A stretch of DNA of 44,580 nt from a virus (Duplodnaviria > Heunggongvirae > Uroviricota > Caudoviricetes). Shown piece after piece: positions 1 through 44,580 of this stretch. A program made the translations under genes and the position numbers. A model generated the notes under the pieces. That model had not been told where the DNA came from, did not search any database, and worked only from the letters and a program-made list of their open reading frames with translations. How positions within the stretch are numbered: position 1 is the stretch's first letter; each line of letters begins with the position of its first letter. The DNA is taken from the IMG/VR virus record IMGVR_UViG_2534682161_000019; one strand, written 5' to 3'.

Positions 1-390
1 ATGCGTTACCTTTCATCGGTGAAAATAAGCGTACAACAACTATTTATGCTGGCATTAGCGATGATAGTTATTGGTTCTTTCGGAGTGTGTTTATTTGTTT
101 ACTATATTTTTATCGATAATTGATATTTTTTTTGGGTATTAAAACAGAGTGGCGCAAACGAAAATATAAATTCGCTATAAAGACGGGGGTGAGTATTAAA
201 AATAATAACTACTAAGTTAAAATCTTTAAAAGTGTTAAAAACATCACATTTAATTATGTTGGGTACTGGAGAATAACCCGTCGTTTTGTTAAAAATAATT
301 TCGCATGATGAATCCCCCTGTGCGGAGGGGCAATCAGCAAGCAGGAATATGGATAATCGCGGATTCAGGTGCTGATACTGAACTCACCGG

Positions 391-810
391 GTGACACCCG
401 GCGCCATGCAGATGATGAAAGTGATGAGTATACCTGCCCCTCTCCGGAGGGGCTTTTTTATAGGCGAACGGATTTCAACCACAATTTATGAGGCTGCGCA
501 ACTGCGTGGCCTTTTTCGTTTTGCGGGCTGCGGTTCCCCTCTTTTGATTCTCCGTGTAACCGGAGATATTGCGAATACGTATGTGCTTAACGGTAACAGT
601 GTGTATATACCTGCCCAGGTATTTACCATGAATCTGGTGATGCTGGGTAGTGCTGAACACCTGTACTTTAACGGTAACGAGCAAACACCAGTTTTCTCTG
701 CGATCCTTTCGAGGATACAGACAGTGTCTGGAGCGGCAGAAATCCGGGGTATGGTGACGACAGTTACAGACCAGTCTGCATCGCAATCTGGATCAAAGTA
801 TTCAGGCTGA
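391..810 (+). CDS. hypothetical protein, probably a remnant gene of a degraded neighbouring prophage
   Basis: 139-aa ORF in the six-frame track; no motif I recognise; lies just upstream of a truncated lom-like fragment. Confidence 0.25.
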   Translation: MTPGAMQMMKVMSIPAPLRRGFFIGERISTTIYEAAQLRGLFRFAGCGSPLLILRVTGDIANTYVLNGNSVYIPAQVFTMNLVMLGSAEHLYFNGNEQTPVFSAILSRIQTVSGAAEIRGMVTTVTDQSASQSGSKYSG

Positions 811-886
811 ATGCGGGGACACCCGTGACGGTGTCGGTTTCAGGTAATGCAGTGACGGTTATCTGGATGTCGAAGGCGTAAACACG

Positions 887-1170
887 ATGAAGATGCCACA
901 ACTACCGGCAAAACTGAGTGCCGGGTATCTTCATGCCCGTTCTGATATGTCCGGCAGTGATGATTTAACCGGGTTCAATGTGAAATACCGCTATGAATTT
1001 ACGGACACGCTGGGGCTGGTGACGTCATTCAGCTATGCAGGAGACAGGAATCGCCTGCTTACCCGTTACAGTTATACCCGCTGGCATGAAGACTCCGTGC
1101 GTAACTGCTAATTCAGCATGATGGCGGGTGTGGCTTACAGCCGTGTTTCCACCTTCTCCGGGGATTCGTA
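887..1170 (+). pseudogene. lom: truncated Lom/Ail/PagC-family outer-membrane protein gene fragment
   Basis: 74-aa ORF (887-1111) with ...[37 protein letters not shown] almost identical to the interior of the intact Lom at 41239-41838, then a frame break and a further ...MAGVAYSRVSTFSGD piece; the N-terminal signal peptide and C-terminal beta-strands are missing. Confidence 0.7.
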
Positions 1171-1325
1171 ATTAGCTTGCTAAGCATGCGATGTCAGGCT
1201 GATTAGTGAAGTGATGTTGTTCGCATTTTGTCAGGGAGGGGGTATTGAGACTTTTTTGGAGAGTAGAGATCTGGTGTGGTTGTAAAAATTGTTGTTGGCA
1301 TTGAGAGCTGAAAATATACCAGGCT

Positions 1326-1359
1326 CTAAAAAACTAAGGGGTTACCATTTGGTAACCCC
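1326..1359 (-). terminator. rho-independent terminator-like hairpin downstream of the tRNA-Ser 3-prime fragment
   Basis: Perfect inverted repeat GGGGTTACC-ATTT-GGTAACCCC (1338-1359) followed on the minus strand by a T-run (A-run 1327-1332 on plus). Confidence 0.5.
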
Positions 1360-1369
1360 TTATCTTATT

Positions 1370-1429
1370 TGGCGGAAGCGCAGAGATTCGAACTCTGGAA
1401 CCCTTTCGGGTCGCCGGTTTTCAAGACCG
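1370..1429 (-). other. 60-nt 3-prime fragment of a tRNA-Ser gene (serT-like), putative prophage attachment-site remnant (attL side)
   Basis: Reverse complement reads CGGTCTTGAAAACCGGCGACCCGAAAGGGTTCCAGAGTTCGAATCTCTGCGCTTCCGCCA, which matches the anticodon-stem-to-CCA part of E. coli serT as I remember it; the 5-prime half of the tRNA is absent (sequence beyond 1429 is unrelated); integrase lies 140 bp away. Confidence 0.7.
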
Positions 1430-1569
1430 AAGAAAAATAAAGAAAAATCAGTATAATACGCAAAATAGCCGAAAAGTTAATCAGACTTAACACCAAGAAA
1501 AATCAAGATGTTAGGGAGTTATTCAGAGTTAATATACCAGGTCTTTTGCCAGAAAATTTTCTGGATTGT

Positions 1570-2589
1570 CTACTTACTGACCACAAGCGGCAAATCCAGT
1601 GTTGGCGTGATTTTGGTTTTACGATCGTAAATCAACACCTGATTTTCTGTTTTGTGTCCACTGAAAATTTGTTTGTCGCGACTGCTGCCTTCGTAATCTG
1701 AAATTCCTTTGGCTTTTATGTCATGGAAGTTGCACCCAAACGGAACACCGGCTTTTTGCTCGGCTGCACGTTTAGCCTGATTCCACCAGTTGTTCAGCGT
1801 TTTAGCTATGACCTTCCCGCCTTTGGTTGTGTTGATCACATACTCGCATGTGCCGGAAGATACATTTCGGGCTAACTGGATCGCCGTACGTAATCGTGGA
1901 GACCATTCCTTGATTTGTTTGGTGCCGGTCTTGTTTTGCTCAATGTAAATCCCTTTGTCCATAATATCCTGCCATTTCAGCTCGAGCACATCACCGAGCC
2001 TTGCCGCACAGAGATAGGATATCTCCATTGCAATACGTAACTGTGGAATTGCTTCCGCATATATCGCAGCATACTGTTCATCGGTGATGTAAACAGTACG
2101 GGCTTTAAGCGTGAATTTTCTGACTCCTTTGCATGGATTATTTTTCACATACCCACGCTCATATCCCCATCCGTATACGCGACTCAGACTTGCCAGTTCA
2201 TGGTTTGCCTGGGTCTTGCTCTCAAGCCCCCGCTTATCCATGAAAATTCTTACCTGCTCAATTTTTACATTATCAGCAAGCATTTTCCCGAATACCGCCA
2301 GTAATGCCCTTTGATGTTGCCGATAATCTTTTTGGGTTCGGGGGGCCAGTTCTGTAAATGCAGGGGAGTCCATAAACATGTGCCATAATTTAGCTACGGT
2401 CATTATGTCGTGGAGTTTTGCCTTTTCCAGTTCATAATTTTGCCAGACTTTAGCCACGCTGGTTTCCCGCACTCTTCCTAGCTTTATCGTCCTTGTGCTT
2501 CCTTTGGGCTTCCATACGTAACTGTAACCATTCGATCTAACGCGCGGTGGCAGTACATTATCTTTTTTGTCTTTTCTTGGTCTTCCCAT
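1570..2589 (-). CDS. int: tyrosine site-specific integrase (lambda Int family)
   Basis: 339 aa; C-terminal ...FHDIKAKGISDYEGS...FSGHKTENQVLIYDRK resembles the lambda Int catalytic region (GHKSDTMASQYRDDR); adjacent to tRNA fragment; overlaps the xis-like ORF. Confidence 0.9.
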   Translation of the reverse strand: MGRPRKDKKDNVLPPRVRSNGYSYVWKPKGSTRTIKLGRVRETSVAKVWQNYELEKAKLHDIMTVAKLWHMFMDSPAFTELAPRTQKDYRQHQRALLAVFGKMLADNVKIEQVRIFMDKRGLESKTQANHELASLSRVYGWGYERGYVKNNPCKGVRKFTLKARTVYITDEQYAAIYAEAIPQLRIAMEISYLCAARLGDVLELKWQDIMDKGIYIEQNKTGTKQIKEWSPRLRTAIQLARNVSSGTCEYVINTTKGGKVIAKTLNNWWNQAKRAAEQKAGVPFGCNFHDIKAKGISDYEGSSRDKQIFSGHKTENQVLIYDRKTKITPTLDLPLVVSK

Positions 2590-2809
2590 TATTCAGTGCC
2601 TCAAAATCGGGTTCAGCAGAAACCAGTTCAGATACTTTTGACATTGCTGTTAGTCCACGTGGAATATCACAGCGTAGAACTATCGGCTCGTTTTTAGGCC
2701 CGATTAAAAATGGGATGCCGTGCAGTCTTAACTGGTGTTGCTGTCTTGTGTATCGCTTGTATTTCGTGATCTCTTGAATCTCTGCTGGCGATAGAGTTAA
2801 TTCATACAT
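2558..2809 (-). CDS. xis: putative excisionase / small DNA-binding protein
   Basis: 83-aa basic ORF immediately upstream of and overlapping the int start, the canonical xis position; sequence itself not confidently recognised. Confidence 0.5.
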   Translation of the reverse strand: MYELTLSPAEIQEITKYKRYTRQQHQLRLHGIPFLIGPKNEPIVLRCDIPRGLTAMSKVSELVSAEPDFEALNNGKTKKRQKR

Positions 2810-2875: not shown

Positions 2876-5359
2876 TTAAAAATCAGCCTGACTCGGGATC
2901 AGTTTTTGTATTGTAGCTGTAACGTATTTTGCCTGGTGACGGGCGTCATCCAGTGCATTGTGGTGCACGCCTTCGAATGGAATAACGGTTCTGGCATCAA
3001 AGTCGATTGTTTTTCCCAGCTCAACGATTGTGCGTACATCGCGATCGTTGTGGTAGCGCCACGGGCAGGGGATGTCCAGACGTTCGTATGAGGTGCGCAA
3101 AATTGCGTTATCGAAAGTTGCACCATTACCCCATACCTGAACGAATTTTTCATCTGAGTATTCGTTGATGAACTCCCGAAACCGCGAAAGGGCATCCTTC
3201 AGTTTTACCTGGTCTGTTAAAATGGCAGCTCTGGCTTCACTGGACTGCTTCAGCCACCATTCGATGGTTCCACCGTCAGGAACAGCCCCTGTATTCATTG
3301 CGTCAGTCAGACTGATAACGATATAAAATACTGGCCCGATTTCCCCTGTTTGTGGGTCGAAGAAAACCGCACCAATAACCACGATGGGCGCATTGGTGTT
3401 GGTTCCCATTGTTTCAAGGTCGATCATCAGGTGGTACCACACTCTGCTGGTGGATGTGATAACGTGATGACCGTTCACCGCAATTAAGGGATCTGCCGTC
3501 TCGCCAGTTTCATTATCGCTGGCGTGGTCCTGAGCGCTGCCAGCATTCTCCTTGTGTGGATGTTCAGCGCCTTCCATTTCCTCCGGATCATTTTCCTGAA
3601 CTTCAACCTGATTCTCTTCATCGAATGTTTCCTGGTATGTTGCGTCGCCCATCACCGCACCACAATCAGGGCAGTTGCCGCCGCCGGTCTGACCGCAGGC
3701 GGTGCAGACTTTTTCCGCTTCCTGTTGCGCTACTGGCTCAGGTTGTTTCGTTTCTGGCTCGTTTTGTAACGCATTTGGGCTGTTTTGTTCCGCGTTCTGG
3801 TCGTTCTGTTCCGTTTCTTGCTGGTTCTGATTCACAGAATCGCGGGTTTCAATCCCCTTCACCCATTTCGGATCATTCGGGTCGCTAATCCCTGCAACAA
3901 ATTCACTACGTGATACAGCAAGCAACTTATCGGCGTCAGGCTGGCTGATATTGGCTGCCTGCATAATTTTGTTTACTTCGTCAGCGGTAACTTTTACCGG
4001 CTCCGGTTGTGCGATCGTGTCAGATGCACCAGTATTTTGTTGTGAACCTGAGTATGTACCGTTTTTGCGGGCAAAATATTCTTCTTTCGTGATTTCAGTA
4101 GCCCCTGCAGCCAGCGCCTTATTCAGACCAGAAAGTTTGTTTGCACGACCGTATTTTTCGCCATCCTTGTCGGTGAAGAGGAAGTAGAACGGCCCCTCAC
4201 GCTCTACAGATGATTCGACTTCCACTTTGCATTCGGTTTTTTCGTTGTCGTGAATTGCCGTTTCCACTGCGTCAGTTTCTGGTACTGGCGACGAGAGAGT
4301 ATTAGCTGTGCCCTGATTTGTTCCTTCGTCATCTTCAAACACGCCCTTTGTAGTCAGGTATTCAGTGATGTATTTGTTCAGTGCCACGGGATCTTTGTGA
4401 ATGTCGATCGGGCGTTCACGGACAAGGCCAAAAATAGTCTGGCGGCTGTAGCGAAGCGCATCAGGTTGTTTGCGCATTGATGCGGAGATGCGCTTCCAGT
4501 CTTCGCGATCTCTGGCGATAACTTCATTTTTAGCCCAGCGAAGGATGCTGCCGTCAATGTTTCCGGCATCCGCATCACCAGGCCAGAGATAGTAGGCCAG
4601 CTCCCTGTCCAGGGTTTTCCATGTCTGCTTGTATTCGCGATGAATGGCGGCAGTTACAGGAGGGATTTTTTCTGCTGGGTTTTCAGTGTGCTGTCGGTTG
4701 GCTTTGGCGCGGGCAAGATCAACAACAGACGTGTATTTTCCAGTCTCTTTGCGCTCTGCGTCCTGCCGTTTTTTCCAGTTACGTAATTCAACCTGAATTT
4801 CGGGCCATTTGGTACCCGGCTTACATTTGTGTTTAACCCATCCGATAGCGAACAGTTTGCGTTCCGGATACATAGCGTTAATTTCAGGCGTTTTCATCAG
4901 TGCTTCAACGATATGCCCGTCAAAGGTAGCCACGTCTTCTTGCAGTAATTCCTGCGCGTCAATCGCCATATCAACGGTGATGTTTTCACATGTACCGAAC
5001 TTAACCAGGACCGCGTTCTGTACTTCAAGGGACAGCTTGTCAAAATTGACGTTAATAGGATCGGATTCTGGTTCGACCGGAATAAAGGAAGCGGATTCCT
5101 CATCCCAGTGGTTTTCCTGCATATATTCGGTATCCCAGGAGTCGATAGCAGGGCGGGGCATGCCGGGTTTATCTTCGCAGACAAGAAATTTATAAGCGCA
5201 GTCCTGAGCAGCAGGATATTGCTCCAGGAATTGCCAGGTAAATTTGGCACGGGCGCGGCGTTCATCACCGGCTTCAATGGCAGTGGCTACAGCAACTGCG
5301 CCCTCTTCTTTTATTGCCTGTTCGTCCGGAATGGCGGCGCAAATAAAGACTTTACTCAT
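2876..5359 (-). CDS. large early-region protein with C-terminal DnaQ-like (DEDDh) 3-prime-5-prime exonuclease domain (type often annotated exodeoxyribonuclease VIII-like in E. coli prophages)
   Basis: 827 aa; C-terminus carries Exo I (MIDLETMGT), Exo II (WGNGATFDNAIL) and Exo III (HHNALDDARH) motifs; Cys4 ribbon CTACGQTGGGNCPDCG; low-complexity Q/N/E-rich linker. Confidence 0.7.
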   Translation of the reverse strand: MSKVFICAAIPDEQAIKEEGAVAVATAIEAGDERRARAKFTWQFLEQYPAAQDCAYKFLVCEDKPGMPRPAIDSWDTEYMQENHWDEESASFIPVEPESDPINVNFDKLSLEVQNAVLVKFGTCENITVDMAIDAQELLQEDVATFDGHIVEALMKTPEINAMYPERKLFAIGWVKHKCKPGTKWPEIQVELRNWKKRQDAERKETGKYTSVVDLARAKANRQHTENPAEKIPPVTAAIHREYKQTWKTLDRELAYYLWPGDADAGNIDGSILRWAKNEVIARDREDWKRISASMRKQPDALRYSRQTIFGLVRERPIDIHKDPVALNKYITEYLTTKGVFEDDEGTNQGTANTLSSPVPETDAVETAIHDNEKTECKVEVESSVEREGPFYFLFTDKDGEKYGRANKLSGLNKALAAGATEITKEEYFARKNGTYSGSQQNTGASDTIAQPEPVKVTADEVNKIMQAANISQPDADKLLAVSRSEFVAGISDPNDPKWVKGIETRDSVNQNQQETEQNDQNAEQNSPNALQNEPETKQPEPVAQQEAEKVCTACGQTGGGNCPDCGAVMGDATYQETFDEENQVEVQENDPEEMEGAEHPHKENAGSAQDHASDNETGETADPLIAVNGHHVITSTSRVWYHLMIDLETMGTNTNAPIVVIGAVFFDPQTGEIGPVFYIVISLTDAMNTGAVPDGGTIEWWLKQSSEARAAILTDQVKLKDALSRFREFINEYSDEKFVQVWGNGATFDNAILRTSYERLDIPCPWRYHNDRDVRTIVELGKTIDFDARTVIPFEGVHHNALDDARHQAKYVTATIQKLIPSQADF

Positions 5360-5452
5360 TTTGTTTTAACCTCATTACAGATTTAAGGGTGAACAAATCC
5401 CTGCCATTGCTGGCATATAAAAATGAAACCGGATATTAATTACGGTGCTGTT

Positions 5453-5644
5453 TTAAAGTCCTGCCGGTATTTCGTTATTATTAGTGTGAGTAGTTTTATC
5501 TACCGGATAACAGTTACCGGGAATTTTTTGTTCTGCTGCTGCAGCCATGCATTCTTTCATTGAACCGTATAAGCCAGTCACCAGCTCAAGAGATTCGCCG
5601 GAAACAAGATAAACTGTCAGAACGAGTGCAAATGTTGTATTCAT
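5453..5644 (-). CDS. hypothetical small protein (hydrophobic N-terminus)
   Basis: 63-aa ORF in the leftward early operon, stop overlapping the next gene start (ATGA). Confidence 0.4.
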   Translation of the reverse strand: MNTTFALVLTVYLVSGESLELVTGLYGSMKECMAAAAEQKIPGNCYPVDKTTHTNNNEIPAGL

Positions 5645-5829
5645 TGTTTATATCCTTTTTGCAGCAGGTCCAGACGAGCCAGCATTGAAGGAATGCATAC
5701 TTCATTTAACAGGTCCTGCTCGAGTTTTCTCTGCTTAATGGCGTCTTCAATAAATGTTTTGTCTCCAGTGATAACGCCAATTTCGAAACGAAGTTCAGAC
5801 GTGATGGCATTACATGATAACTTTTCCAT
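5641..5829 (-). CDS. hypothetical small early protein (RacC-like position)
   Basis: ORF track gives 5641-5934; the internal ATG at 5829 (MEKLSCNAITSELRFEIG...) is preceded by a GAGGA RBS whereas the 5934 start has none, so the shorter start is preferred. Confidence 0.4.
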   Translation of the reverse strand: MEKLSCNAITSELRFEIGVITGDKTFIEDAIKQRKLEQDLLNEVCIPSMLARLDLLQKGYKQ

Positions 5830-6613: not shown

Positions 6614-6628
6614 AAGTCAGGTAATACC

Positions 6629-6853: not shown

Positions 6854-6942
6854 GAATATCCAGATTGTTAAAGAGCATGCCGGAGGTTTATCCGTGTCCG
6901 GCGCACGCACTTCATCTGCGGAGAACTACTTGAGCTCATTGG

Positions 6943-7158: not shown

Positions 7159-7187
7159 ACTGATTCCTCGAGGTGCCGCTTCGCTTA

Positions 7188-7316: not shown

Positions 7317-7317
7317 A

Positions 7318-8191: not shown

Positions 8192-8199
8192 AAGTTCAA

Positions 8200-32038: not shown

Positions 32039-32469
32039 ATTTTGCCCTCAGACTGGCGCGTGAGATGGGGAGGCCTGACTGGCGCACCATGCTTGCCGGG
32101 ATGACATCCACCGAATATGCCGACTGGCACCGTTTTTACCGCACGCATTATTTTCAGGATACCCAGCTGGATATGCATTTTTCCGGGCTGATGTACGCCG
32201 TACTCAGCCTGTTTTTTTGCGATCCGGATATGCATCCGGCGGATTTCAGTCTGCTTGCACCCCGACGTGATGATGAGCAGACGGAGATGCCGGATGAGGA
32301 CGATATGCTGATGCGGAAAGCGGCAGGACTTTCTGGTGGTGTCCGCTTTGGGGCTGACGGGAAGGAAATCGTTACGGTCAGTGATGACATGCGGAGCAGT
32401 ACAGAGGATGAAGCCATGCTGATGATGGTGTCTGAGGGAATTCCAGGAGGTGTACGCTATGGCGGGTAA
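31607..32469 (+). CDS. GT: tail assembly chaperone G-T fusion made by programmed -1 ribosomal frameshift
   Basis: Slippery heptamer GGGAAAG at 32014-32020 in the G frame, as in lambda; the -1 frame continues into the T-like ORF (...DWRTMLAGMTSTEYADWHRFYRTHYFQD...), which matches lambda gpT. Confidence 0.8.
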
Positions 32470-35071
32470 TTTTGCCGATCTGACAGCTGTTCTTACACTG
32501 GATTCAACCCGTTTTTCTGAAGAGGCTGCACGGGTAAAGAAAGAACTGGGTGAAACCAGTGACCTTGCGGATTTGATGGCCGGGCGTGTCAGCCAGTCTT
32601 TTAAGAAACAGGCCACTGCCGTTGAACAGGGCCTGAGCCGTCAGGCGCTGGCTGCACAAAAAGCCGGGATTTCCGTCGGGCAGTATAAAGCGGCCATGCG
32701 TACCCTGCCAGCACAGTTTACGGATATCGCCACGCAGCTTGCCGGTGGTCAGAATCCCTGGCTTATTCTGCTGCAACAGGGCGGTCAGGTGAAGGACGCC
32801 TTCGGCGGGATGCTCCCCATGTTCAGGGGGCTTGCCGGTGCGATCACCCTGCCGATGGTCGGGGTCACCTCGCTGGCGGTGGCGACAGGTGCGCTGGCGT
32901 ATGCCTGGTACCAGGGGGATTCCACGCTTTCAGCGTTTAATAAAACCCTGGTTCTTTCCGGTAATCAGTCCGGACTGGCTGCCGATCGCATGCTGACGCT
33001 CTCCAGAGCCGGACAGGCAGCAGGGCTGACGTTTAACCAGGCGAGCGAGTCACTGGCAGCCCTGGTGAATGCCGGTGTGCGTGGTGGTGAACAGTTTGAT
33101 GCCATCAACCAGAGTGTGGCGCGTTTTGCTTCTGCATCCGGTGTGGAAGTGGACAAGGTTGCAGAGGCTTTTGGAAAGCTGACCACCGACCCGACGTCGG
33201 GACTGATGGCTATGGCGCGCCAGTTCCGTAACGTGACGGCAGAGCAGATTGCGTATGTTGCGCAGCTGCAGCGTTCGGGTGATGAGGCAGGGGCCTTACA
33301 GGCGGCGAACGATATCGCCACAAAAGGCTTTGATGAGCAGACCCGTCGCCTGAAAGAAAACATGGGGACGCTGGAAACCTGGGCGGATAAAACCGGGAAG
33401 GCATTCAAATTGATGTGGGATGCCATCCTGGATATCGGTCGTCCTGAATCCTCAGCGGATATGCTCGCCAGTGCGCAGAAGGCATTTGATGAGGCGGATA
33501 AAAAATGGCAGTGGTACCAGAGCCGGAGTCAGCGCCGGGGAAAGACCTCCTCTTTCCGTGCCAACCTTCAGGGTGCATGGGATGACCGTGAAAATGCCCG
33601 TCTGGGGCTGGCGGCAGCCACGCTGCAGTCGGATATGGAAAAAGCCGGTGAACTGGTGGCAAGGGACCGGGCTGAGCGTGAGGCGTCACAGCTGAAGTAT
33701 ACCGGAGAGGCGCAGAAGGCGTATGAGCGCCTGCTGACGCCACTGGAGAAATATACCGCCCGTCAGGAAGAACTGAATAAGGCACTGAAAGACGGGAAAA
33801 TTCTGCAGGCGGATTACAACACGCTGATGGCGGCGGCGAAAAAGGATTATGAAGCGACGCTGAAAAAGCCGAAACAGTCCGGCGTGAAGGTGTCTGCGGG
33901 CGATCGTCAGGAAGACAGTGCTCATGCTGCCCTGCTGACGCTTCAGGCAGAACTCCGGACGCTGGAGAAGCATGCCGGAGCAAATGAGAAAATCAGCCAG
34001 CAGCGCCGGGATTTGTGGAAGGCGGAGAGTCAGTTCGCGGTACTGGAGGAGGCGGCGCAACGTCGCCAGCTGTCTGCACAGGAGAAATCCCTGCTGGCGC
34101 ATAAAGATGAGACGCTGGAGTATAAACGCCAGCTGGCTGCACTTGGCGACAAGGTTACGTATCAGGAGCGCCTGAACGCGCTGGCGCAGCAGGCGGATAA
34201 ATTCGCACAGCAGCAACGGGCAAAACGGGCCGCCATTGATGCGAAAAGCCGGGGGCTGACTGACCGGCAGGCAGAACGGGAAGCCACGGAACAGCGCCTG
34301 AAGGAACAGTATGGCGATAATCCGCTGGCGCTGAATAACGTCATGTCAGAGCAGAAAAAGACCTGGGCAGCTGAAGACCAGCTTCGCGGGAGCTGGATGG
34401 CAGGCCTCAGGTCCGGCTGGAGCGAGTGGAAAGAGAGCGCCACGGACAGTATGTCGCAGGTAAAAAGTGCAGCCACGCAGACCTTTGATGGTATTGCACA
34501 GAATATGGCGGCGATGCTGACCGGCAGTGAGCAGAACTGGCGCAGCTTCACCCGTTCCGTGCTGTCCATGATGACAGAAATTCTGCTTAAGCAGGCAATG
34601 GTGGGGATTGTCGGGAGTATCGGCAGCGCCATTGGCGGGGCTGTTGGTGGTGGCGCATCCGCGTCAGGCGGTACAGCCATTCAGGCCGCTGCGGCGAAAT
34701 TCCATTTTGCAACCGGAGGATTCACAGGAACCGGCGGCAAATATGAGCCAGCGGGGATTGTTCACCGTGGTGAATTTGTCTTCACGAAGGAGGCAACCAG
34801 CCGGATTGGTGTCGGCAACCTGTACCGCCTGATGCGGGGCTATGCGGAAGGTGGTTATGTGGGCGGTGCCGGAAGTCCGGCGCAGATGCGGCGGGCTGAA
34901 GGCATTAATTTTAATCAGAACAATCACGTGGTGATTCAGAACGACGGTACGAATGGTCTGCCAGGTCCACAGATGATGAAGGCAGTGTATGACATGGCCC
35001 GCAAGGGTGCCCGTGATGAAATTCAGACACAGATGCGTGATGGTGGCCTGTTCTCCGGAGGTGGACGATGA
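32459..35071 (+). CDS. H: tail tape measure protein H (lambda gpH)
   Basis: ATG at 32459 8 nt after AGGAGG (track begins at the upstream GTG 32450); ~870 aa, long stretches essentially identical to lambda H (...QALAAQKAGISVGQYKAAMRTLPAQFTDIATQLAGGQNPWLILLQQGGQVKD...). Confidence 0.95.
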   Translation: MAGNFADLTAVLTLDSTRFSEEAARVKKELGETSDLADLMAGRVSQSFKKQATAVEQGLSRQALAAQKAGISVGQYKAAMRTLPAQFTDIATQLAGGQNPWLILLQQGGQVKDAFGGMLPMFRGLAGAITLPMVGVTSLAVATGALAYAWYQGDSTLSAFNKTLVLSGNQSGLAADRMLTLSRAGQAAGLTFNQASESLAALVNAGVRGGEQFDAINQSVARFASASGVEVDKVAEAFGKLTTDPTSGLMAMARQFRNVTAEQIAYVAQLQRSGDEAGALQAANDIATKGFDEQTRRLKENMGTLETWADKTGKAFKLMWDAILDIGRPESSADMLASAQKAFDEADKKWQWYQSRSQRRGKTSSFRANLQGAWDDRENARLGLAAATLQSDMEKAGELVARDRAEREASQLKYTGEAQKAYERLLTPLEKYTARQEELNKALKDGKILQADYNTLMAAAKKDYEATLKKPKQSGVKVSAGDRQEDSAHAALLTLQAELRTLEKHAGANEKISQQRRDLWKAESQFAVLEEAAQRRQLSAQEKSLLAHKDETLEYKRQLAALGDKVTYQERLNALAQQADKFAQQQRAKRAAIDAKSRGLTDRQAEREATEQRLKEQYGDNPLALNNVMSEQKKTWAAEDQLRGSWMAGLRSGWSEWKESATDSMSQVKSAATQTFDGIAQNMAAMLTGSEQNWRSFTRSVLSMMTEILLKQAMVGIVGSIGSAIGGAVGGGASASGGTAIQAAAAKFHFATGGFTGTGGKYEPAGIVHRGEFVFTKEATSRIGVGNLYRLMRGYAEGGYVGGAGSPAQMRRAEGINFNQNNHVVIQNDGTNGLPGPQMMKAVYDMARKGARDEIQTQMRDGGLFSGGGR

Positions 35072-35397
35072 AAACCTTCCGCTGGAAAGTGAAACCCGGT
35101 ATGGATGTGGTTTCGGCCCCTTCCGTCAGGAAAGTGCGCTTTGGTGATGGCTATTCCCAGCGAGCGCCTGCCGGGCTGAACGCTGACCTGAAAACGTACA
35201 GCGTGACGCTGTCTGTCTCCCGTGAGGAGGCCACGGCGCTGGAGTCGTTTCTGGCTGAGCACGGGGGCTGGAAAGCCTTTCTGTGGACGCCGCCTTATGA
35301 GTGGCGGCAGATAAAGGTGACCTGCGCAAAATGGTCGTCGCGGGTCAGTATGCTGCGTGTTGAGTTCAGCGCAGAGTTTGAACAGGTGGTGAACTGA
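35068..35397 (+). CDS. M: minor tail protein M (lambda gpM)
   Basis: 109 aa MKTFRWKVKPGMDVVSAPSVRKVRFGDGYSQRAPAGLNADLKTYSVTLSV..., matching lambda M. Confidence 0.95.
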   Translation: MKTFRWKVKPGMDVVSAPSVRKVRFGDGYSQRAPAGLNADLKTYSVTLSVSREEATALESFLAEHGGWKAFLWTPPYEWRQIKVTCAKWSSRVSMLRVEFSAEFEQVVN

Positions 35398-36095
35398 TGC
35401 AGGATATCCGGCAGGAAACACTGAATGAATGCACCCGTGCGGAGCAGTCGGCCAGCGTGGTGCTCTGGGAAATCGACCTGACAGAGGTCGGTGGAGAACG
35501 TTATTTTTTCTGTAATGAGCAGAACGAAAAAGGTGAGCCGGTCACCTGGCAGGGGCGACAGTATCAGCCGTATCCCATTCAGGGGAGTGGTTTCGAACTG
35601 AATGGCAAAGGCACCAGTACGCGCCCCACGCTGACGGTTTCTAACCTGTACGGTATGGTCACCGGGATGGCGGAAGATCTGCAGAGTCTGGTCGGCGGAA
35701 CGGTGGTCCGGCGTAAGGTTTACGCCCGTTTTCTGGATGCGGTGAACTTCGTCAACGGAAACAGTGACGCCGATCCGGAGCAGGAGGTGATCAGCCGCTG
35801 GCGCATCGAGCAGTGCAGCGAACTGAGCGCGGTGAGTGCCTCCTTTGTACTGTCCACGCCGACGGAAACGGACGGCGCTGTTTTTCCGGGACGTATCATG
35901 CTGGCCAACACCTGCACCTGGACCTATCGCGGTGATGAGTGCGGTTATAGCGGTCCGGCTGTCGCGGATGAATATGACCAGCCAACGTCCGATATCACGA
36001 AGGATAAATGCAGCAAATGCCTGAGCGGTTGTAAGTTCCGCAATAACGTCGGCAACTTTGGCGGCTTCCTTTCCATTAACAAACTTTCGCAGTAA
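35397..36095 (+). CDS. L: minor tail protein L (lambda gpL)
   Basis: 232 aa MQDIRQETLNECTRAEQSASVVLWEIDLTEVGGERYFFCNEQNEKGEPVTWQGRQYQPYPIQGSGFE..., matching lambda L. Confidence 0.95.
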   Translation: MQDIRQETLNECTRAEQSASVVLWEIDLTEVGGERYFFCNEQNEKGEPVTWQGRQYQPYPIQGSGFELNGKGTSTRPTLTVSNLYGMVTGMAEDLQSLVGGTVVRRKVYARFLDAVNFVNGNSDADPEQEVISRWRIEQCSELSAVSASFVLSTPTETDGAVFPGRIMLANTCTWTYRGDECGYSGPAVADEYDQPTSDITKDKCSKCLSGCKFRNNVGNFGGFLSINKLSQ

Positions 36096-36100
36096 ATCCC

Positions 36101-36844
36101 ATGACACAGACAGAATCAGCGATTCTGGCGCACGCCCGGCGATGTGCGCCAGCGGAGTCGTGCGGCTTCGTGGTGAGAGCGCCGGAGGGGGAAAGATATT
36201 TTCCCTGCGTGAATATTTCCGGTGAGCCGGAGGCGTATTTCCGTATGTCGCCGGAAGACTGGCTGCAGGCAGAAATGCAGGGTGAGATTGTGGCGCTGGT
36301 CCACAGCCACCCCGGTGGTCTGCCCTGGCTGAGTGAGGCCGACAGGCGGCTGCAGGTGCAGAGTGATTTGCCGTGGTGGCTGGTCTGCCGGGGAGTGATT
36401 CATAAGTTCCGCTGTGTGCCGCATCTCACCGGGCGGCGTTTTGAGCACGGGGTGACAGACTGTTATACGCTGTTCCGCGATGCCTATCATCTTGCAGGTA
36501 TCGATTTGCCGGATTTTTACCGACATGATGACTGGTGGAAATCAGGTCAGAATCTCTATCTGGATAATCTGGAGGCCACAGGGCTGTATCAGGTGCCGTT
36601 GTCATCAGCACAACCGGGCGATGTGCTGCTGTGCTGTTTTGGTTCATCGGTGCCGAATCATGCCGCCATTTACTGTGGTGATGGCGAGCTGCTGCACCAT
36701 ATTCCTGAACAACTGAGCAAACGAGAGAGGTATACCGACAAATGGCAGCGACGCACACACTCCCTCTGGCGTCACCAGGCATGGCACGCATCTGCCTTTA
36801 CGGGGATTTACAACGATTTGGCCGCCGCATCGATCTGCGTGTGA
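36101..36844 (+). CDS. K: tail assembly protein K (lambda gpK; JAB/MPN plus NlpC/P60-like domains)
   Basis: 247-aa ORF; MTQTESAILAHARRCAPAESCGFVV...HSHPGG... matches lambda K; the 3-prime end overlaps the I ORF by ~100 nt, so one boundary is uncertain. Confidence 0.9.
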   Translation: MTQTESAILAHARRCAPAESCGFVVRAPEGERYFPCVNISGEPEAYFRMSPEDWLQAEMQGEIVALVHSHPGGLPWLSEADRRLQVQSDLPWWLVCRGVIHKFRCVPHLTGRRFEHGVTDCYTLFRDAYHLAGIDLPDFYRHDDWWKSGQNLYLDNLEATGLYQVPLSSAQPGDVLLCCFGSSVPNHAAIYCGDGELLHHIPEQLSKRERYTDKWQRRTHSLWRHQAWHASAFTGIYNDLAAASICV

Positions 36845-37413
36845 AAACGGGGGCCGAAGCCATCCGGGCGCTGGCCACACAGCTCCCGGCGTTTCGTCAG
36901 AAACTGAGCGACGGCTGGTATCAGGTACGGATTTCCGGGCGGGACGTCAGCACGTCCGGATTGACGGCGCAGTTACATGAGGTTCTGCCTGACGGCGCTG
37001 TGATTCATATTGTTCCCAGAGTCGCCGGGGCCAAGTCAGGTGGCGTATTCCAGATTGTCCTGGGGGCTGCCGCCATTGCCGGATCATTCTTTACTGCCGG
37101 AGCCACCCTTGCAGCATGGGGGGCAGCCATTGGGGCCGGTGGTATGACCGGTATCCTGTTTTCTCTCGGTGCCAGTATGGTACTTGGTGGTGTGGCGCAG
37201 ATGCTGGCACCGAAAGCCAGAACTCCCCGTACACAGACAACGGATAACGGTAAGCAGAACACCTATTTCTCCTCACTGGATAACATGGTTGCCCAGGGCA
37301 ATGTTCTGCCCGTTCTGTACGGTGAAATGCGCGTGGGGTCGCGGGTGGTCTCTCAGGAGATCAGCACGGCAGACGAAGGGGATGGTGGTCAGGTTGTGGT
37401 GATTGGTCGCTGA
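36742..37413 (+). CDS. I: tail assembly protein I (lambda gpI)
   Basis: 223 aa MAATHTLPLASPGMARICLYGDLQRFGRRIDLRVKTGAEAIRALATQLPAFRQKL..., matching lambda I; start may be the internal Met (MARICLY...). Confidence 0.85.
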   Translation: MAATHTLPLASPGMARICLYGDLQRFGRRIDLRVKTGAEAIRALATQLPAFRQKLSDGWYQVRISGRDVSTSGLTAQLHEVLPDGAVIHIVPRVAGAKSGGVFQIVLGAAAIAGSFFTAGATLAAWGAAIGAGGMTGILFSLGASMVLGGVAQMLAPKARTPRTQTTDNGKQNTYFSSLDNMVAQGNVLPVLYGEMRVGSRVVSQEISTADEGDGGQVVVIGR

Positions 37414-37472
37414 TGAAAAACGTTTATGTGAAACCGCCTCAGGGCGGTTTTGTCGTTTCTGGAGCGTGAGGA

Positions 37473-40400
37473 ATGGGTAAAGGCAGCAGTAAGGGGCATA
37501 CCCCGCGCGAAGCGAAGGACAACCTGAAATCATCCCAGATGCTGAGCGTGATAGACGCCATCAGCGAAGGGCCGGTTGAAGGTCCGGTGGACGGATTAAA
37601 AAGTGTGCTGCTGAACAGTACGCCAGTGCTGGACAGTGAGGGGAATACCAATATCTCCGGTGTAACGGTGGTTTTCCGGGCAGGTGAGCAGGAGCAGACA
37701 CCGCCGGAGGGATTTGAATCCTCCGGCTCCGAGACGGTGCTGGGTACGGAAGTGAAGTACGACACGCCGATTACCCGGACCATCACGTCTGCAAACATCG
37801 ACCGTCTGCGCTTTACCTTCGGTGTGCAGGCACTGGTGGAAACCACCTCAAAGGGGGACCGGAATCCGTCGGAAGTCCGCCTGCTGGTTCAGATCCAGCG
37901 TAATGGTGGCTGGGTGACGGAAAAAGACATCACCATTAAGGGCAAAACCACCTCGCAGTATCTGGCCTCGGTGGTGGTGGGTAACCTGCCGCCGCGCCCG
38001 TTCAATATACGGATGCGCAGGATGACGCCGGACAGCACCACAGACCAGCTGCAGAACAAAACGCTCTGGTCGTCATACACTGAAATCATCGATGTGAAAC
38101 AGTGCTACCCGAACACGGCACTGGTCGGCGTGCAGGTGGATTCGGAGCAGTTCGGCAGCCAGCAGGTGAGCCGTAATTATCATCTGCGCGGGCGCATTCT
38201 GCAGGTGCCGTCGAACTATAACCCGCAGACGCGGCAATACAGCGGTATCTGGGACGGAACGTTTAAGCCGGCATACAGCAACAACCCGGCCTGGTGTCTG
38301 TGGGATATGCTGACCCATCCGCGCTACGGCATGGGGAAACGTCTTGGTGCGGCGGATGTGGACAAATGGGCGCTGTATGTCATCGGCCAGCATTGCGATC
38401 AGTCGGTGCCGGACGGTTTTGGCGGCACGGAGCCGCGCATCACCTGTAATGCGTACCTGACCACACAGCGCAAGGCGTGGGATGTGCTCAGTGATTTCTG
38501 CTCGGCGATGCGCTGTATGCCGGTATGGAACGGGCAGACGCTGACGTTCGTGCAGGACCGACCATCAGATAAGGTGTGGACCTATAACCGCAGTAATGTG
38601 GTGATGCCGGATGATGGCGCGCCGTTCCGCTACAGCTTCAGCGCCCTGAAGGACCGCCATAATGCCGTTGAGGTGAACTGGATTGACCCGGACAACGGCT
38701 GGGAGACGGCAACAGAGCTTGTGGAGGACACGCAGGCCATTGCCCGTTACGGTCGTAACGTCACGAAGATGGATGCCTTTGGCTGTACCAGCCGGGGGCA
38801 GGCGCACCGCGCCGGGCTGTGGCTGATTAAAACGGAACTGCTGGAAACGCAGACCGTGGACTTCAGCGTGGGTGCCGAAGGGCTTCGCCATGTACCGGGC
38901 GATGTTATTGAAATCTGTGATGATGACTATGCCGGTATCAGCACCGGTGGTCGTGTGCTGGCGGTGAACAGCCAGACCCGGACGCTGACGCTCGACCGTG
39001 AAATCACGCTGCCATCCTCCGGCACCACGCTGATAAGCCTGGTTGACGGAAATGGCAATCCGGTCAGCGTGGAGGTTCAGTCCGTCACCGACGGCATGAA
39101 GGTGAAAGTGAGCCGTGTTCCTGACGGCGTTGCCGAATACAGCGTGTGGGGGCTGAAGCTGCCGACGCTGCGCCAGCGCCTGTTCCGCTGCGTGAGTATC
39201 CGTGAGAACGACGACGGCACGTATGCCATCACTGCCGTGCAGCATGTACCGGAAAAAGAAGCCATCGTGGATAACGGGGCGCACTTTGACGGCGACCAGA
39301 GCGGCACGGTGAATGGTGTCACACCGCCAGCGGTGCAGCACCTTACCGCCGAAGTCACCGCAGACAGCGGGGAGTATCAGGTACTGGCCCGCTGGGACAC
39401 GCCGAAGGTGGTGAAGGGCGTGAGCTTCATGCTTCGCCTGACCGTGGCAGCGGACGACGGCAGTGAGCGGCTGGTCAGCACAGCCCGGACGACGGAAACC
39501 ACATACCGCTTCAGACAACTGGCGCTGGGGCGTTATATGCTGACGGTCCGGGCTGTAAATGCCCGGGGGCAGCAGGGTGATCCGGCGTCGGTATCGTTCC
39601 GGATTGCGGCACCGGCAGCGCCTGTCACTATTGAACTGATACCGGGGTATTTTCAGATAACGGCAGTCCCGCGTCTTGCGGTGTATGACCCGACGGTACA
39701 GTTTGAGTTCTGGTTCTCGGAAAAACGGATTGCTGATATCAGGCAGGTTGAAACCACAGCCCGCTATCTTGGCACGGCGCTGTACTGGATAGCTGCCAGT
39801 ATTAATATCAGGCCGGGCCATGATTATTACTTTTATATCCGCAGTGTGAACATCGTCGGTAAATCAGCGTTTGTGGAAGCTGTCGGCCGGCCGGTTAATG
39901 ATGCTGAGGTGTATCTCAATTTTTTTGAAGGGAAAATAAACAGCACCCTGCTGGGGCAGGAGCTGAACGATCGTATTAATGCCTCGGCATTGCGCAGTGA
40001 AGTTGAGCAACTGGAGGATGAGATCAATCAGCAGATAGAGAGTGATATTGCTGAAGTGACCCAAAAAATCGGGGAGACAGAAAACAGCCTCACACAGCTG
40101 GTTGCGAAAAAAAATGATGAGCTGTCACTGGGTATATCACAGGTGAGCCAGAGAGTGGATAACGTCAGCAGCGAACTCACGCAGACGGTCAGTCAGAGTA
40201 ATGAGGAGAATGCACGCCAGATAGCGCAGGTTCGCCAGTATGTGGATCAAAAAAGCAGTGAAATCATGACGACAACGGACCAGAAGCTGGGAGATCAGGA
40301 GGCCACCATCCAGCAGATACAAAAGGTTCAGACGGACACCAGTAATAACCTGAACAGTATGTGGGCCGTGAAACTGCAGCAGATGCAGGATGGTCGCCTT

Positions 40401-41171
40401 TATATTGCGGGTATCGGTGCCGGTATTGAGAACACCCCTGACGGCATGCAGAGCCAGGTGCTGCTGGCGGCAGACAGGATTGCGATGATTAATCCTGCGA
40501 ATGGCAACACAAAGCCGATGTTTGTTGGTCAGGGCGATCAGATATTCATGAACGACGTGTTCCTGAAACGCCTGACGGCTCCCACCATTACCAGCGGCGG
40601 CAATCCGCCGGTATTTTCCCTGACACCGGACGGGCGGCTGACGGCGAAAAATGCCGATATCAGCGGTAACGTGAATGCGAACTCCGGGACGCTCAACAAC
40701 GTCACGATTAACGAGAACTGTCGGGTTCTGGGAAAACTGTCCGCCAACCAGATTGAAGGCGATCTCGTTAAAACAGTGGGCAAAGCTTTCCCCCGGGACT
40801 CCCGTGCACCGGAACGGTGGCCATCAGGGACCATCACCGTCAGGGTTTATGACGATCAGCCGTTTGACCGGCAGATTGTTATTCCGGCGGTGGCATTCAG
40901 CGGCGCTAAACATGAGCGGGAGAATAACGATATTTATTCGTCATGCCGCCTGATAGTACGGAAAAACGGTGCTGAAATTTATAACCGTACCGCGCTGGAT
41001 AATACGCTGATTTACAGTGGCGTTATTGATATGCCAGCTGGTCGCGGCCACATGACGCTGGAGTTTTCGGTGTCATCATGGCTGGTAAATGACTGGTATC
41101 CCACAGCAAGTATCAGCGATTTGCTGGTTGTGGTGATGAAGAAAGCCACCGCAGGCATCAGTATCAGCTGA
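37473..41171 (+). CDS. J: host specificity protein J (central tail fibre/tip attachment, lambda gpJ)
   Basis: 1232 aa; sequence closely matches lambda J throughout as recalled (e.g. ...[58 protein letters not shown]...). Confidence 0.95.
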
Positions 41172-41190
41172 ATTTTATAACCCATATACG

Positions 41191-41214
41191 GGCGCCAGAA
41201 ATGGCGCCTTTTTT
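41191..41214 (+). terminator. rho-independent terminator after J
   Basis: GGCGCC-AGAAAT-GGCGCC hairpin followed by TTTTTT. Confidence 0.6.
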
Positions 41215-41238
41215 ATTGCAGAAAAGCGAGAGGTAATT

Positions 41239-41838
41239 ATGCGTAAATTATGTGCTGTTATTTTGTCCGCAGTAGTCTGGCAGATCGCCGCTGCTACGCC
41301 AGCGAGTGCAGCAGAGCATCAGTCCACACTAAGCGGCGGGTATCTTCAGTCCCATACTGATATGCCCGGAAACGATGACCTGAAGGGCATTAACGTGAAA
41401 TACCGTTATGAATTTACGGACACGCTGGGGCTGGTGACGTCATTCAGCTATGCAGGAGACAAGAATCGCCAGCTGACCCGTTACAGTGATACCCGCTGGC
41501 ATGAAGATTCCGTTCGTAACCGCTGGTTCAGCGTAATGGCGGGGCCGTCTGTGCGCGTGAATGAATGGTTCAGCGCGTATGCGATGGCGGGTGTGGCTTA
41601 CAGCCGTGTGTCGACTTTCTCCGGGGATTATCTCCGCGTAACTGACAATAAGGGGAAAACGCACGATGTGCTGACCGGAAGTGATGACGGTCGCCACAGC
41701 AACACGTCTCTGGCGTGGGGAGCTGGCGTGCAGTTTAACCCGACCGAATCCGTGGCCATTGATATTGCTTATGAAGGCTCCGGCAGTGGCGACTGGCGCA
41801 CTGACGGTTTCATCGTGGGTGTCGGTTATAAATTCTGA
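41239..41838 (+). CDS. lom: Lom outer-membrane protein (Ail/Lom/PagC family), lysogen-expressed moron
   Basis: 199 aa with signal peptide MRKLCAVILSAVVWQIAAATPASA; beta-barrel sequence ...[23 protein letters not shown]...GFIVGVGYKF as in lambda Lom. Confidence 0.9.
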   Translation: MRKLCAVILSAVVWQIAAATPASAAEHQSTLSGGYLQSHTDMPGNDDLKGINVKYRYEFTDTLGLVTSFSYAGDKNRQLTRYSDTRWHEDSVRNRWFSVMAGPSVRVNEWFSAYAMAGVAYSRVSTFSGDYLRVTDNKGKTHDVLTGSDDGRHSNTSLAWGAGVQFNPTESVAIDIAYEGSGSGDWRTDGFIVGVGYKF

Positions 41839-41863
41839 TTAGCCAGGTAACACAGTGTTATGA

Positions 41864-41891
41864 CAGCCCGCCGGTTCAGGCGGGCTTTTTT
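41864..41891 (+). terminator. rho-independent terminator after lom
   Basis: CAGCCCGCC-GGTTCA-GGCGGGCT hairpin followed by TTTTTT. Confidence 0.6.
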
Positions 41892-41902
41892 GTGGGGTGA
41901 AT

Positions 41903-43993
41903 ATGGCAGTAAAGATTTCAGGTGTCCTGAAGGACGGAGCGGGTGAGCCTGTCGTAAACTGTGCGATTGAATTGCGAGCCAGAAGAACCAGTCCGACAGT
42001 TGTGGTTAATATTGTGGCAACCTGTCTTACGGGAAGTGATGGCGGGTATACTATTAATGCTGAGCCGGGATTTTATGATGTATTTTTGTCCCGCTCAGGG
42101 CATCCTCCTGTAAAGGCGGGGGAAATTTATGTTGCACCGACAGATGAGCCGGATACGCTGAATGCTTTTCTGGATGCACCAAAGGAGGGTGATTTACGCC
42201 CTGAGGTAATGAAGCGTTTTGAGGAAATGGTAAATACCGTTGTTCGCTTGTCTGAGCAGGTGGTCAGTGACAGGGAGAGAGCAGAAACAGCTGCTGATGA
42301 TGCAATCAATGCAGCAACATCTGCGGCGGTTAGTAAGGATGAGGCAGAAGAGCTAAAAAATCAGACACAGCAGAGCGCCGAAGCTGCAGCCGGAAACGCA
42401 CAGCAGACGGCACAGGATGTGACGACAACCGCAACGGCCCGTGATGATGCGGAACGTTTTGCGGGTGAGGCTGAAAACAGCGCACAGACATCAGGCACAG
42501 CGCGGGACGAATCAGTCGATGCCGCCGAACGTGCCCGCCTTTATCATAATACCGCATCATCAGCAGCGACCAGTTCAGAACTGTCGGCAAATGCTGCGCT
42601 GGGGCACAAAAACAGTGCCGCCGAATACGCCCGACAGGCTAAAGCCAGCCAGGATGCAGGTGCAGACAATGCGCAGGAAGCGAAACAGTACAGGGATGAG
42701 GCGCAGCAGATAGTTGATGACCTGAATGCAACAAATGCCAGCACGACAGAAAAAGGTCTGGTGCAACTCTGTAGTTATACGGACAACGACAGCGAGGAAC
42801 TGGCTGCCACGCCAAAGGCTGTCAAAGCCGTCATGGACGAAACGAAAACAAAAGCGCCACTGGACAGCCCGGCCTTCACCGGCACCCCAACCACCCCAAC
42901 CCCACCGGATGATGCCGCCGGTCTGGAAGCAGCGAACGCAGCGTTTGTGCGCAAACTGCTTGCTGCGCTGGTTGGCTCATCACCGGAAGTTCTGGACACC
43001 CTGAACGAGCTGGCAGCGGCGCTGGGCAATGACCCGAACTTTGCGACGACAATCACAAACGCGCTGGCAGGCAAACAACCGCTTAATGACGTCTTAACGG
43101 CAATCAGCGCACTGACGCAACGGGCAGATAATCTTCTGTACTTCAATACAGACGGGAATGCCTCACTGTCTCTGCTGTCAGAGAAGGGCCGCGCATTGCT
43201 GGCGCATGACACGGCTGAAGCCATGCGCACGGAGCTTGAGCTGAGCGCGGCTGCGACGATGGAACCCCAGAGTGATATCCGTGACCGCACACCGGGCAGG
43301 CTGGCCCTGTCCGGGATGTATGGGTTTGGACAGGCATTCACCAGCGCCGAAGCTCTGTCATTTAACGGACAGGCTGATTTCGTTATATGGCTGCAGACAG
43401 TCACCCCGGGGCGTTATGCGGTCAGTATTGCGGACTCCTCCACGCTGCTGGTGGGCACCACGAAATTTAACGGTATCATTGATGTGATGTGGTCACCGTC
43501 TGATAACGATGGTTCAGACTCAGCGCGTAAATTCAAAACGCTGCTGTACTACAACCAGTATTACGAGGATGAGCACAGCATACATTGTATGCGTTATCGC
43601 TACAGTGGTAACAGCTGGAATGCAACATCAAGCCTTATTGTGTATGACGGCAACTCCCTGGCATATCTGATGTCCTCAACCGCCGGTAATGGTCCGTTCT
43701 CATATTACCAATACCCGGCCGTCGGTGTGCCGATTATGGCGGTATATCAGGGAGAAAGTTTTGGTGAAAATGCTTCTCTGGGACTCGGTGATACTGTGCC
43801 GGGTTCCCGTCTTGGTCCTCTGGCCATGAGTGCACAGGTTAGTGATACAGGGACATACGCATCCTCACCGCAGGTTGTGATTGGCGGTGCCGGTGAATAC
43901 AACTTCCCCGGTCGTTACACGGCGCTTTCGGGCCTGGGTAACAATTATGGTACTCAGCGTGGCTTTATCGGTCTTTTTGTACGCATTGAGTAA
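41903..43993 (+). CDS. stf: side tail fibre protein Stf-like (lambda-like N-terminus, divergent C-terminal distal domain)
   Basis: N-terminus MAVKISGVLKDG.G.PV.NC.I.L.ARR.S.TVVVN... and central ...ATPKAVKAVMDETKTKAPLDSPAFTGTPT.PT...NELAAALGNDPNFATTITNALAGKQP... match lambda Stf; the C-terminal ~250 aa differ. Confidence 0.85.
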   Translation: MAVKISGVLKDGAGEPVVNCAIELRARRTSPTVVVNIVATCLTGSDGGYTINAEPGFYDVFLSRSGHPPVKAGEIYVAPTDEPDTLNAFLDAPKEGDLRPEVMKRFEEMVNTVVRLSEQVVSDRERAETAADDAINAATSAAVSKDEAEELKNQTQQSAEAAAGNAQQTAQDVTTTATARDDAERFAGEAENSAQTSGTARDESVDAAERARLYHNTASSAATSSELSANAALGHKNSAAEYARQAKASQDAGADNAQEAKQYRDEAQQIVDDLNATNASTTEKGLVQLCSYTDNDSEELAATPKAVKAVMDETKTKAPLDSPAFTGTPTTPTPPDDAAGLEAANAAFVRKLLAALVGSSPEVLDTLNELAAALGNDPNFATTITNALAGKQPLNDVLTAISALTQRADNLLYFNTDGNASLSLLSEKGRALLAHDTAEAMRTELELSAAATMEPQSDIRDRTPGRLALSGMYGFGQAFTSAEALSFNGQADFVIWLQTVTPGRYAVSIADSSTLLVGTTKFNGIIDVMWSPSDNDGSDSARKFKTLLYYNQYYEDEHSIHCMRYRYSGNSWNATSSLIVYDGNSLAYLMSSTAGNGPFSYYQYPAVGVPIMAVYQGESFGENASLGLGDTVPGSRLGPLAMSAQVSDTGTYASSPQVVIGGAGEYNFPGRYTALSGLGNNYGTQRGFIGLFVRIE

Positions 43994-44007
43994 TGAGGAA
44001 ATCAGGC

Positions 44008-44580
44008 ATGAAAATCAGAGCGGTGAAAGGTATCAGAAACGCACATTATCTTGAAAATGGTGCGGTTGACTGCGAGGTGTTATTTGAAGGTGAAACGGAG
44101 TTCGCCCTGTATACTGCCATACAGGATGATATGGCCCCGACAGGCCAGCATGTCTGGCAGGAGCTGCAAAGCGGGAAATGGGGCGAAATCGCCCCGTTCA
44201 CTGTCACGCCGGAACTTATTGCAGCGGCAAAGGATGCCAAAAGGCGGGAAATTGAGGCATGGCGCGACAGTCAGGAAAACGTTGAGTTTATTTTCACGTT
44301 TGATGGCCGTCGTTTTGATGGCGGAAAAACCTCGCAGTCACGCCTTGCCCCCGTGGTTGCAGCAGCACAGGCCGGACTGCTTCCGGATGGTTTTTTCTGG
44401 ACTGATGCGGATAATAACAACGTCGTACTGACCAGGGAGAAACTTATTGCGCTGAACGATGCCATGATGGTGGCCATGGTGGCGGAGGGATTTAAAATCC
44501 ACGAACGCCAGCGGGAGATGAAGGAACAACTGAATAATCTGGATGACTTGGCTTCAATTCGAGCGTTTGGCATTTGCTAA
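44008..44580 (+). CDS. putative tail fibre assembly/chaperone-like protein (non-canonical)
   Basis: ATG at 44008 7 nt after GAGGA (track begins at 43993); ~190 aa ending at a TAA at the window edge; downstream of stf where tfa normally sits, but it does not resemble lambda Tfa as I recall it. Confidence 0.35.
   Translation: MKIRAVKGIRNAHYLENGAVDCEVLFEGETEFALYTAIQDDMAPTGQHVWQELQSGKWGEIAPFTVTPELIAAAKDAKRREIEAWRDSQENVEFIFTFDGRRFDGGKTSQSRLAPVVAAAQAGLLPDGFFWTDADNNNVVLTREKLIALNDAMMVAMVAEGFKIHERQREMKEQLNNLDDLASIRAFGIC

Follow-up and report, generated by a model that had tools for sequence, protein, structure and literature searches.

A lambda-like prophage in serT, stacked on an older prophage remnant and probably misjoined to an Stx2g prophage tail, in a draft contig of Escherichia coli 7V

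The stretch of DNA analysed here (hereafter the window; 44,580 nucleotides, IMG/VR virus record IMGVR_UViG_2534682161_000019) has as its left end the standard left junction of a lambda-like prophage in the tRNA gene serT, abutting the wreck of an older prophage of about 2.6 kb. Its last approximately 10 kb is, judged by sequence identity, part of another prophage, of the Stx2g type, at potC/potB. By the comparisons given below, the left part of the serT prophage (prophage A) is joined to the tail region of the Stx2g prophage (prophage B) inside a 1.6-kb stretch of the tape-measure gene in the deposited contig, and the window thus ends at potB and not at serT. This join is most likely an artefact of the 454/Celera assembly caused by a collapsed repeat. 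Taken as a whole, two integrations at serT together with a misjoined contig make a likely account and the best of those considered.

Results

Source contig and strain

The window corresponds to AEXD01000008.1:248417-292996 of the draft genome of E. coli 7V and is 100% identical to it over all stretches compared. Strain 7V is a STEC of serotype O2:H25 that carries stx2g and comes from cattle; its genome was built with the Celera assembler from 454 data that included 3-kb mate pairs, and its authors stated that the 3' ends of some phages were not resolvable (PMC3491183). In the text of Steyert et al. 2012, neither the insertion site of the 7V Stx2g prophage nor serT nor potB is named.

The orphan serT fragment and the left attachment site

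The features at the left junction are as follows.

1335..1362, minus strand: intrinsic terminator hairpin for serT (12 pairs, then GTTTTTT; -20.3 kcal/mol, z = -5.1)
1370..1429, minus strand: orphan 3' part of serT, attL core of the resident prophage A (60/60 match to nt 29-88 of K-12 serT)
1430..1569, no strand: phage arm of attL, from the core to int (100% identical in OkiPb01695)
1570..2589, minus strand: tyrosine integrase of the lambda Int type, 339 aa (PF00589, PHROG integrase families, alignment to lambda Int)
2558..2809, minus strand: excisionase-like protein, DUF4224 (PHROG 1266 'excisionase', E = 4e-20)

The minus-strand reading of 1370-1429 (CGGTCTTGAAAACCGG...GCTTCCGCCA) represents the final 60 nt, CCA included, of the 88-nt K-12 serT, which encodes tRNA-Ser(UGA). 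The match ends at base 1430, and OkiPb01695, which has this integrase but lacks the remnant, breaks at the same point. The 5' 28 nt of serT are replaced by phage arm sequence common to other serT prophages, and a junction of this type (at least 80% identity) was detected in about 748 of 5426 complete E. coli genomes (~14%). The earlier note had proposed that only the 3' 60 nt of serT are present, with a terminator hairpin on the far side and an integrase 140 bp away on the near side, and all of this was borne out; the integrase ORF leaves a gap of exactly that length. Its reading of the fragment as the att duplicate of a tRNA-targeting integrase also agrees with the adjoining int, with the empty site in MFDS1022581 and with the intact serT at the far end of the prophage in N96, both of which are described below.

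The tRNA-like stretch might alternatively be a chance likeness, or a misread part of a complete tRNA gene, the latter having been named in the earlier note as grounds for abandoning its reading. ARAGORN found no intact tRNA at the fragment, the tRNAs detected in the window being only tRNA-Thr and tRNA-Gly at 19261-19414, and an Rfam search of the 311-bp slice 1250-1560 gave no tRNA match, even at E<=1. The 60 nt are thus a fragment and not a gene misread, and misreading is already refuted. Together with the unbroken match to serT and the shared phage arm in place of the 5' part, this leaves such alternatives a negligible probability.

The integrase was aligned to lambda Int (1z1b) over its full length, the arm-binding N-terminus included (E = 1e-16), and scored 35 bits against PF00589 (cut-off 27). 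In this alignment, the positions R212, K235, H308 and H333 of lambda Int are conserved, R311 is replaced by Lys (FHDIK, residues ~289-293), and the Tyr lies in LIYDR, just beyond the aligned part. The integrase family is evidently active, as judged by sequence occurrence, since it is present at serT in hundreds of genomes. Elsewhere in the resident prophage, a DicF sRNA (6006-6057, minus strand) and a hok/sok module (14447-14596, plus strand) were detected, and the tRNA-Thr(UGU) and tRNA-Gly(UCC) genes (plus strand) lie downstream of Q.

The terminator hairpin in the window has the stem GGGGUUACC/GGUAACCCC, the variant of the older phage, and the chromosomal stem is GGGGUUAGC/GCUAACCCC. The latter, K-12-type hairpin remains with the orphan on the yccA side, the middle copy, which is that of the window, reads GGUUACC/GGUAACC, and the far copy in N96 is a third variant. 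The three serT terminator hairpins fold at -21.6, -20.3 and -18.8 kcal/mol. As the variants differ by serT copy, each phage supplies a replacement 3' part of serT together with its own terminator. Compared with the chromosomal stem, the phage stems carry paired changes (AGC/GCU to ACC/GGU), with folding almost equal.

The older prophage remnant in the left flank

The following features belong to the remnant, and the complete lom gene near the right end of the window is listed with them for comparison.

1..1369, no strand: right-hand 1.37 kb of the ~2.6-kb older lambdoid serT remnant (100% identical to MFDS1022581 and N96)
273..465, plus strand: copy of an STnc100-family sRNA in the remnant, with a terminator of its own, 436-453 (RF02076, 111.7 bits against a gathering score of 47)
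557..889, plus strand: probable 3' fragment of the tail-tip gene J, in the lambda order J-lom (90-92% identical to gpJ-then-Lom stretches of other E. coli prophages)
905..1166, plus strand: lom pseudogene without its N-terminus and C-terminal third (stop at 1109-1111; 48-bp deletion)
41239..41838, plus strand: complete lom (199 aa, full Ail/Lom ORF)

The remnant begins about 1.22 kb to the left of the window. The order on the contig is yccA, the chromosomal serT terminator, an old serT fragment, an integrase stub, one ORF, tRNA-Arg(UCU), tRNA-Gly(UCC) and then window position 1. The old 3' fragment of serT, which adjoins yccA, consists of 54 nt (window coordinates -1278..-1225). Two substitutions, together with a mismatch in the terminator stem, set it apart in 7V and MFDS1022581 from the unchanged copy of N96, and it looks like the beginning decay of an unselected fragment. 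The integrase stub (171 nt) shows 86% identity to 1471-1740 of the window, at the 3' end of the window int. An outer att copy with an integrase relic is thus present on the far side of the remnant, and the tRNAs, STnc100, J' and lom' stand in lambdoid late-region order. The full remnant was found in only three complete genomes.

The STnc100 stretch is 82% identical to the region of the MFDS1022581 Stx2g prophage directly downstream of stx2gB, before the holin gene, and the intact prophage in the window gave no STnc100 match in Rfam. RefSeq places a 132-aa hypothetical ORF at 412-810, for which no Pfam or PHROG family match was obtained; since the DNA from 557 on matches the ends of J genes, this ORF may be spurious. 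With J' and lom' in the window and a third, older serT fragment with an int stub beside yccA, the suggestion of the earlier note that the window opens in the right end of a degraded, tandem lambdoid prophage can be upheld.

In the lom pseudogene, the first ~27 and the last ~65 codons are absent and positions 30-94 of the 199 of Pfam Ail_Lom are present, so that 905-1166 fails as a functional Ail/Lom gene and the copy at 41239-41838 is complete; RefSeq labels the fragment an incomplete Ail/Lom gene in N96 and MFDS1022581. A truncated lom in the left flank had been noted correctly. Its supposed near-identity to the intact lom was not confirmed: the two are 85% identical over 216 nt (913-1128 against 41328-41543) and 94% identical over 47 nt (1120-1166 against 41583-41629), with a longest exact run of 55 bp. 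The further proposal that the two copies form a recombination substrate between tandem elements was rejected at this degree of likeness; moreover, the intact lom stands in the Stx2g prophage module, so that the pair does not link the remnant with its tandem neighbour.

Comparison genomes and the order of integrations

The bare site, yccA-serT-hyaA, is found in K-12. The complete, stx2g-positive genome MFDS1022581 is 100% identical to window 1-1429 and continues with intact serT and hyaA; by this comparison, it contains the remnant alone and represents a natural empty site for the second phage. The complete genome N96 carries three serT copies in the order yccA - orphan 1 - remnant - orphan 2 - int ... 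intact serT - hyaA, with the intact serT about 50 kb beyond int and 139 bp past the stop codon of the last tail gene. The second att copy and the intact tRNA that belong at the other end of such a prophage are therefore present in N96; they are missing from the 7V source contig because its right arm is chimeric. Two further complete genomes, AP025751 and AP025741, compared via 10-kb flanks, have an identical left arm.

The serT prophage of N96 contains two insertions of the IS66 family (3704-6026 and 29793-32381 of the N96 stretch), one of which truncates lom. In OkiPb01695, int and the early region (3172-23019) are 99.3% identical over 19.8 kb; the late region, which includes a tail sheath and a baseplate, is completely different and illustrates strikingly how serT phages exchange modules. 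OkiPb01695 was rejected as a model of the right end on account of this wholly different, myovirus-type late region.

These arrangements show a two-step history of serT in this E. coli lineage. Two lambda-type phages, each with an integrase that recombines inside the 3' part of the tRNA gene, entered it one after the other. At each integration, the old 3' part was left as an orphan beside int and a working serT was rebuilt at the far end, because each phage carries a replacement 3' part and terminator. The first prophage then decayed to 2.6 kb, of which the int stub, one ORF, tRNA-Arg, tRNA-Gly, J', lom' and the STnc100 sRNA are left. Prophage A, the second, entered the rebuilt serT and produced the 60-nt orphan at 1370-1429, which still has the terminator of the first phage. 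The identity block of the resident phage begins at serT nt 29 and that of the remnant near nt 35. The two positions fall in the anticodon stem-loop and, by analogy with other tRNA-targeting integrases, strand exchange may be placed in the anticodon loop. Williams is said to have described, in 2002, one class of tRNA-targeting integrases that exchanges strands in the anticodon stem-loop.

The right end of the window

The right end is made up of one module.

34437..44580, plus strand: tail module of the Stx2g prophage, with M, L, K, I, J, lom, tail fibre and DUF4376 (99.1-100% identical to the Stx2g prophage of MFDS1022581)

The right junction to potB is identical in 1601 of 1601 bases to that of the MFDS1022581 Stx2g prophage, which is located between potC and potB, and 34437-44580 does not, by this measure, belong to the serT prophage as its right arm. 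The window could be taken, as in the earlier note, for one intact prophage bounded by serT copies, with an intact tRNA-Ser just past 44580, and the arrangement in N96, with serT shortly after the last tail gene, speaks for this reading. Against it, the contig continues past 44580 with a 234-bp spacer followed by potB, potA and pepT, no tRNA-Ser or copy of the 54-nt att core was found within 10 kb of contig beyond that position, and the final ~10 kb is the tail region of the Stx2g prophage. The reading is thereby refuted for the deposited contig, and its probability is very low. The expectation of an intact serT at the far end was right in principle for this type of prophage, as seen in N96, and wrong for the sequence beyond this window; somewhere else in 7V, prophage A probably does end at a serT copy, as that simple reading would have it. 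In another draft genome (171-2272 of the compared stretch), an integrase of 372 aa is encoded, on the other strand, 410 bp past an identical DUF4376 gene, which suggests tandem prophages at that site.

The switch within the tape-measure gene

The gene that contains the switch and its allele types were obtained from sliding comparisons and diagnostic SNPs.

32459..35071, plus strand: tape-measure gene in which prophage A (serT) gives way to prophage B (Stx2g/potB)
up to 32813: allele type A, diagnostic site
33135: allele type B, diagnostic site
33533-33982: allele type B, diagnostic sites
34123-34369: allele type A, diagnostic sites
from 34437: allele type B, diagnostic site

Prophages A and B have in common a stretch from ~32.8 to 34.44 kb (about 1.6 kb) that is >99% identical. 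The window was compared with three A types, namely the complete genome N96, and JAQMUX and AP025741, which were compared as far as window-equivalent 42.5 kb. Before 33 kb, 0-1 mismatches to these were counted in each 500 bp; a handful followed between there and 34.4 kb, and from 34.5 kb on the count rose to 71 in 500 bp. The head genes of the window are without similarity to the MFDS1022581 Stx2g prophage, and from ~32.8 kb to the end mostly 0-3 mismatches per 500 bp to that prophage were recorded, with the exception of patches at 36.5-38.0, 41.0-41.5 and 43.0-44.5 kb with 4-18 mismatches per 500 bp. The base at 33046 is unlike both parental types; this base and the alternation of A and B alleles are compatible with a consensus over collapsed repeat copies.

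The hybrid tape-measure protein of 870 aa was found as an exact copy in this contig only, among 153 billion gene positions; for comparison, 64 blocks of the collection list the flanking exonuclease, and 12 contigs contain the DUF4376 protein. The contigs of sister drafts with the identical left part of prophage A end at window-equivalent 32837, 33246, 33262 and 34596, and in assembly NEMK01 the left A half and the right B half lie on separate contigs. Both flanks of the 7V contig are collinear with K-12, and the contig thus amounts to a deletion of the serT-potC interval. In MFDS1022581, the closest complete genome, this interval comprises about 150 kb of core chromosome, or about 194 kb with the Stx2g prophage, and holds lolCDE, holB, tmk, acpP, fabD, fabG and rne. 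These are essential genes, so a plain deletion would not be viable.

A misjoin is therefore favoured by the uniqueness of the hybrid gene, the breaks of the sister drafts at this place, the skipped essential genes and the alternating alleles. The 454 reads are shorter than the 1.6-kb repeat, and the alternating alleles look like the consensus of two collapsed copies. On the other side, the 3-kb mate pairs could in principle have spanned the repeat, and the patchy A and B alleles could have arisen by heteroduplex repair or could be 7V-specific alleles of prophage B.

The junction might instead be real, the serT and Stx2g prophages of 7V having recombined in the tape-measure gene and the intervening segment having been relocated. 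Crossover between direct repeats about 150-190 kb apart would give a hybrid prophage with attL of serT and attR of potB. In favour of this, the contig runs without a break or an ambiguous base, its ORFs are all intact, the parents are highly alike at the switch, a precondition of homologous recombination, and the patchy parental alleles fit heteroduplex repair. Weighing against a real junction, the collinear flanks are those of a deletion-type product whose skipped interval contains essential genes, and rescue would need a second, near-simultaneous reinsertion. The hybrid gene is found in no other assembly, related genomes that are complete or in long contigs retain A-type tails behind the identical left part, and the sister drafts break at exactly the same place. 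A true crossover was consequently considered unlikely; if it had occurred, a hybrid prophage with mismatched att ends would have been formed and ~150-190 kb of core chromosome, including essential genes, would have moved.

With the misjoin as the preferred reading, prophage A in the real 7V chromosome would keep the tail that belongs to it and end at an intact serT by hyaA, and a complete prophage B would lie about 150-190 kb away. What prophage A looks like at its own right end in 7V we infer from the complete genome N96 and, as far as 42.5 kb, from JAQMUX and AP025741.

Discussion

The biology described here is already known: mosaic lambdoid phages and a stacked prophage remnant at a tRNA att site make it a textbook case. 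Of practical use is a warning on a public draft contig of 7V, which is a reference or prototype strain for Stx2g. The contig fuses the tail region of the Stx2g phage with an unrelated serT prophage and skips ~150-190 kb of chromosome, and limits of the Stx2g phage, inferences on its att site or synteny drawn from it would be misleading. A search past the window for a second att copy can also, with a chimeric contig, falsely refute a right model.

Both repeat-induced chimeric contigs and prophage-prophage recombination would show what is seen here, namely a join inside 1.6 kb of >99% identity, other assemblers stopping at that place and mixed alleles. Here the essential genes in the skipped interval favour the artefact over a true crossover, a judgement made from the consensus sequence.

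The left junction resembles lambda-type integration in the 3' part of a tRNA gene in the orphan fragment beside int/xis, the replaced 3' end and the empty site in a sister genome. Nothing essential differs, and the details particular to this case are the phage-borne terminators and the Lys at the position of lambda Int Arg311.

The locus serT has been listed as a prophage locus in STEC O121, and tandem prophage insertions at several sites have been described in O121:H19 (PMC8767318). The window is like such tandem (piggy-back) STEC prophages in that a second phage occupies the rebuilt tRNA gene of the first, so that three att copies follow one another, and in that the older element is here down to the fragments int', J' and lom'. 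It differs from them in the unusually small 2.6-kb element, in the two phage tRNAs and the sRNA that have been kept and in the decaying oldest orphan.
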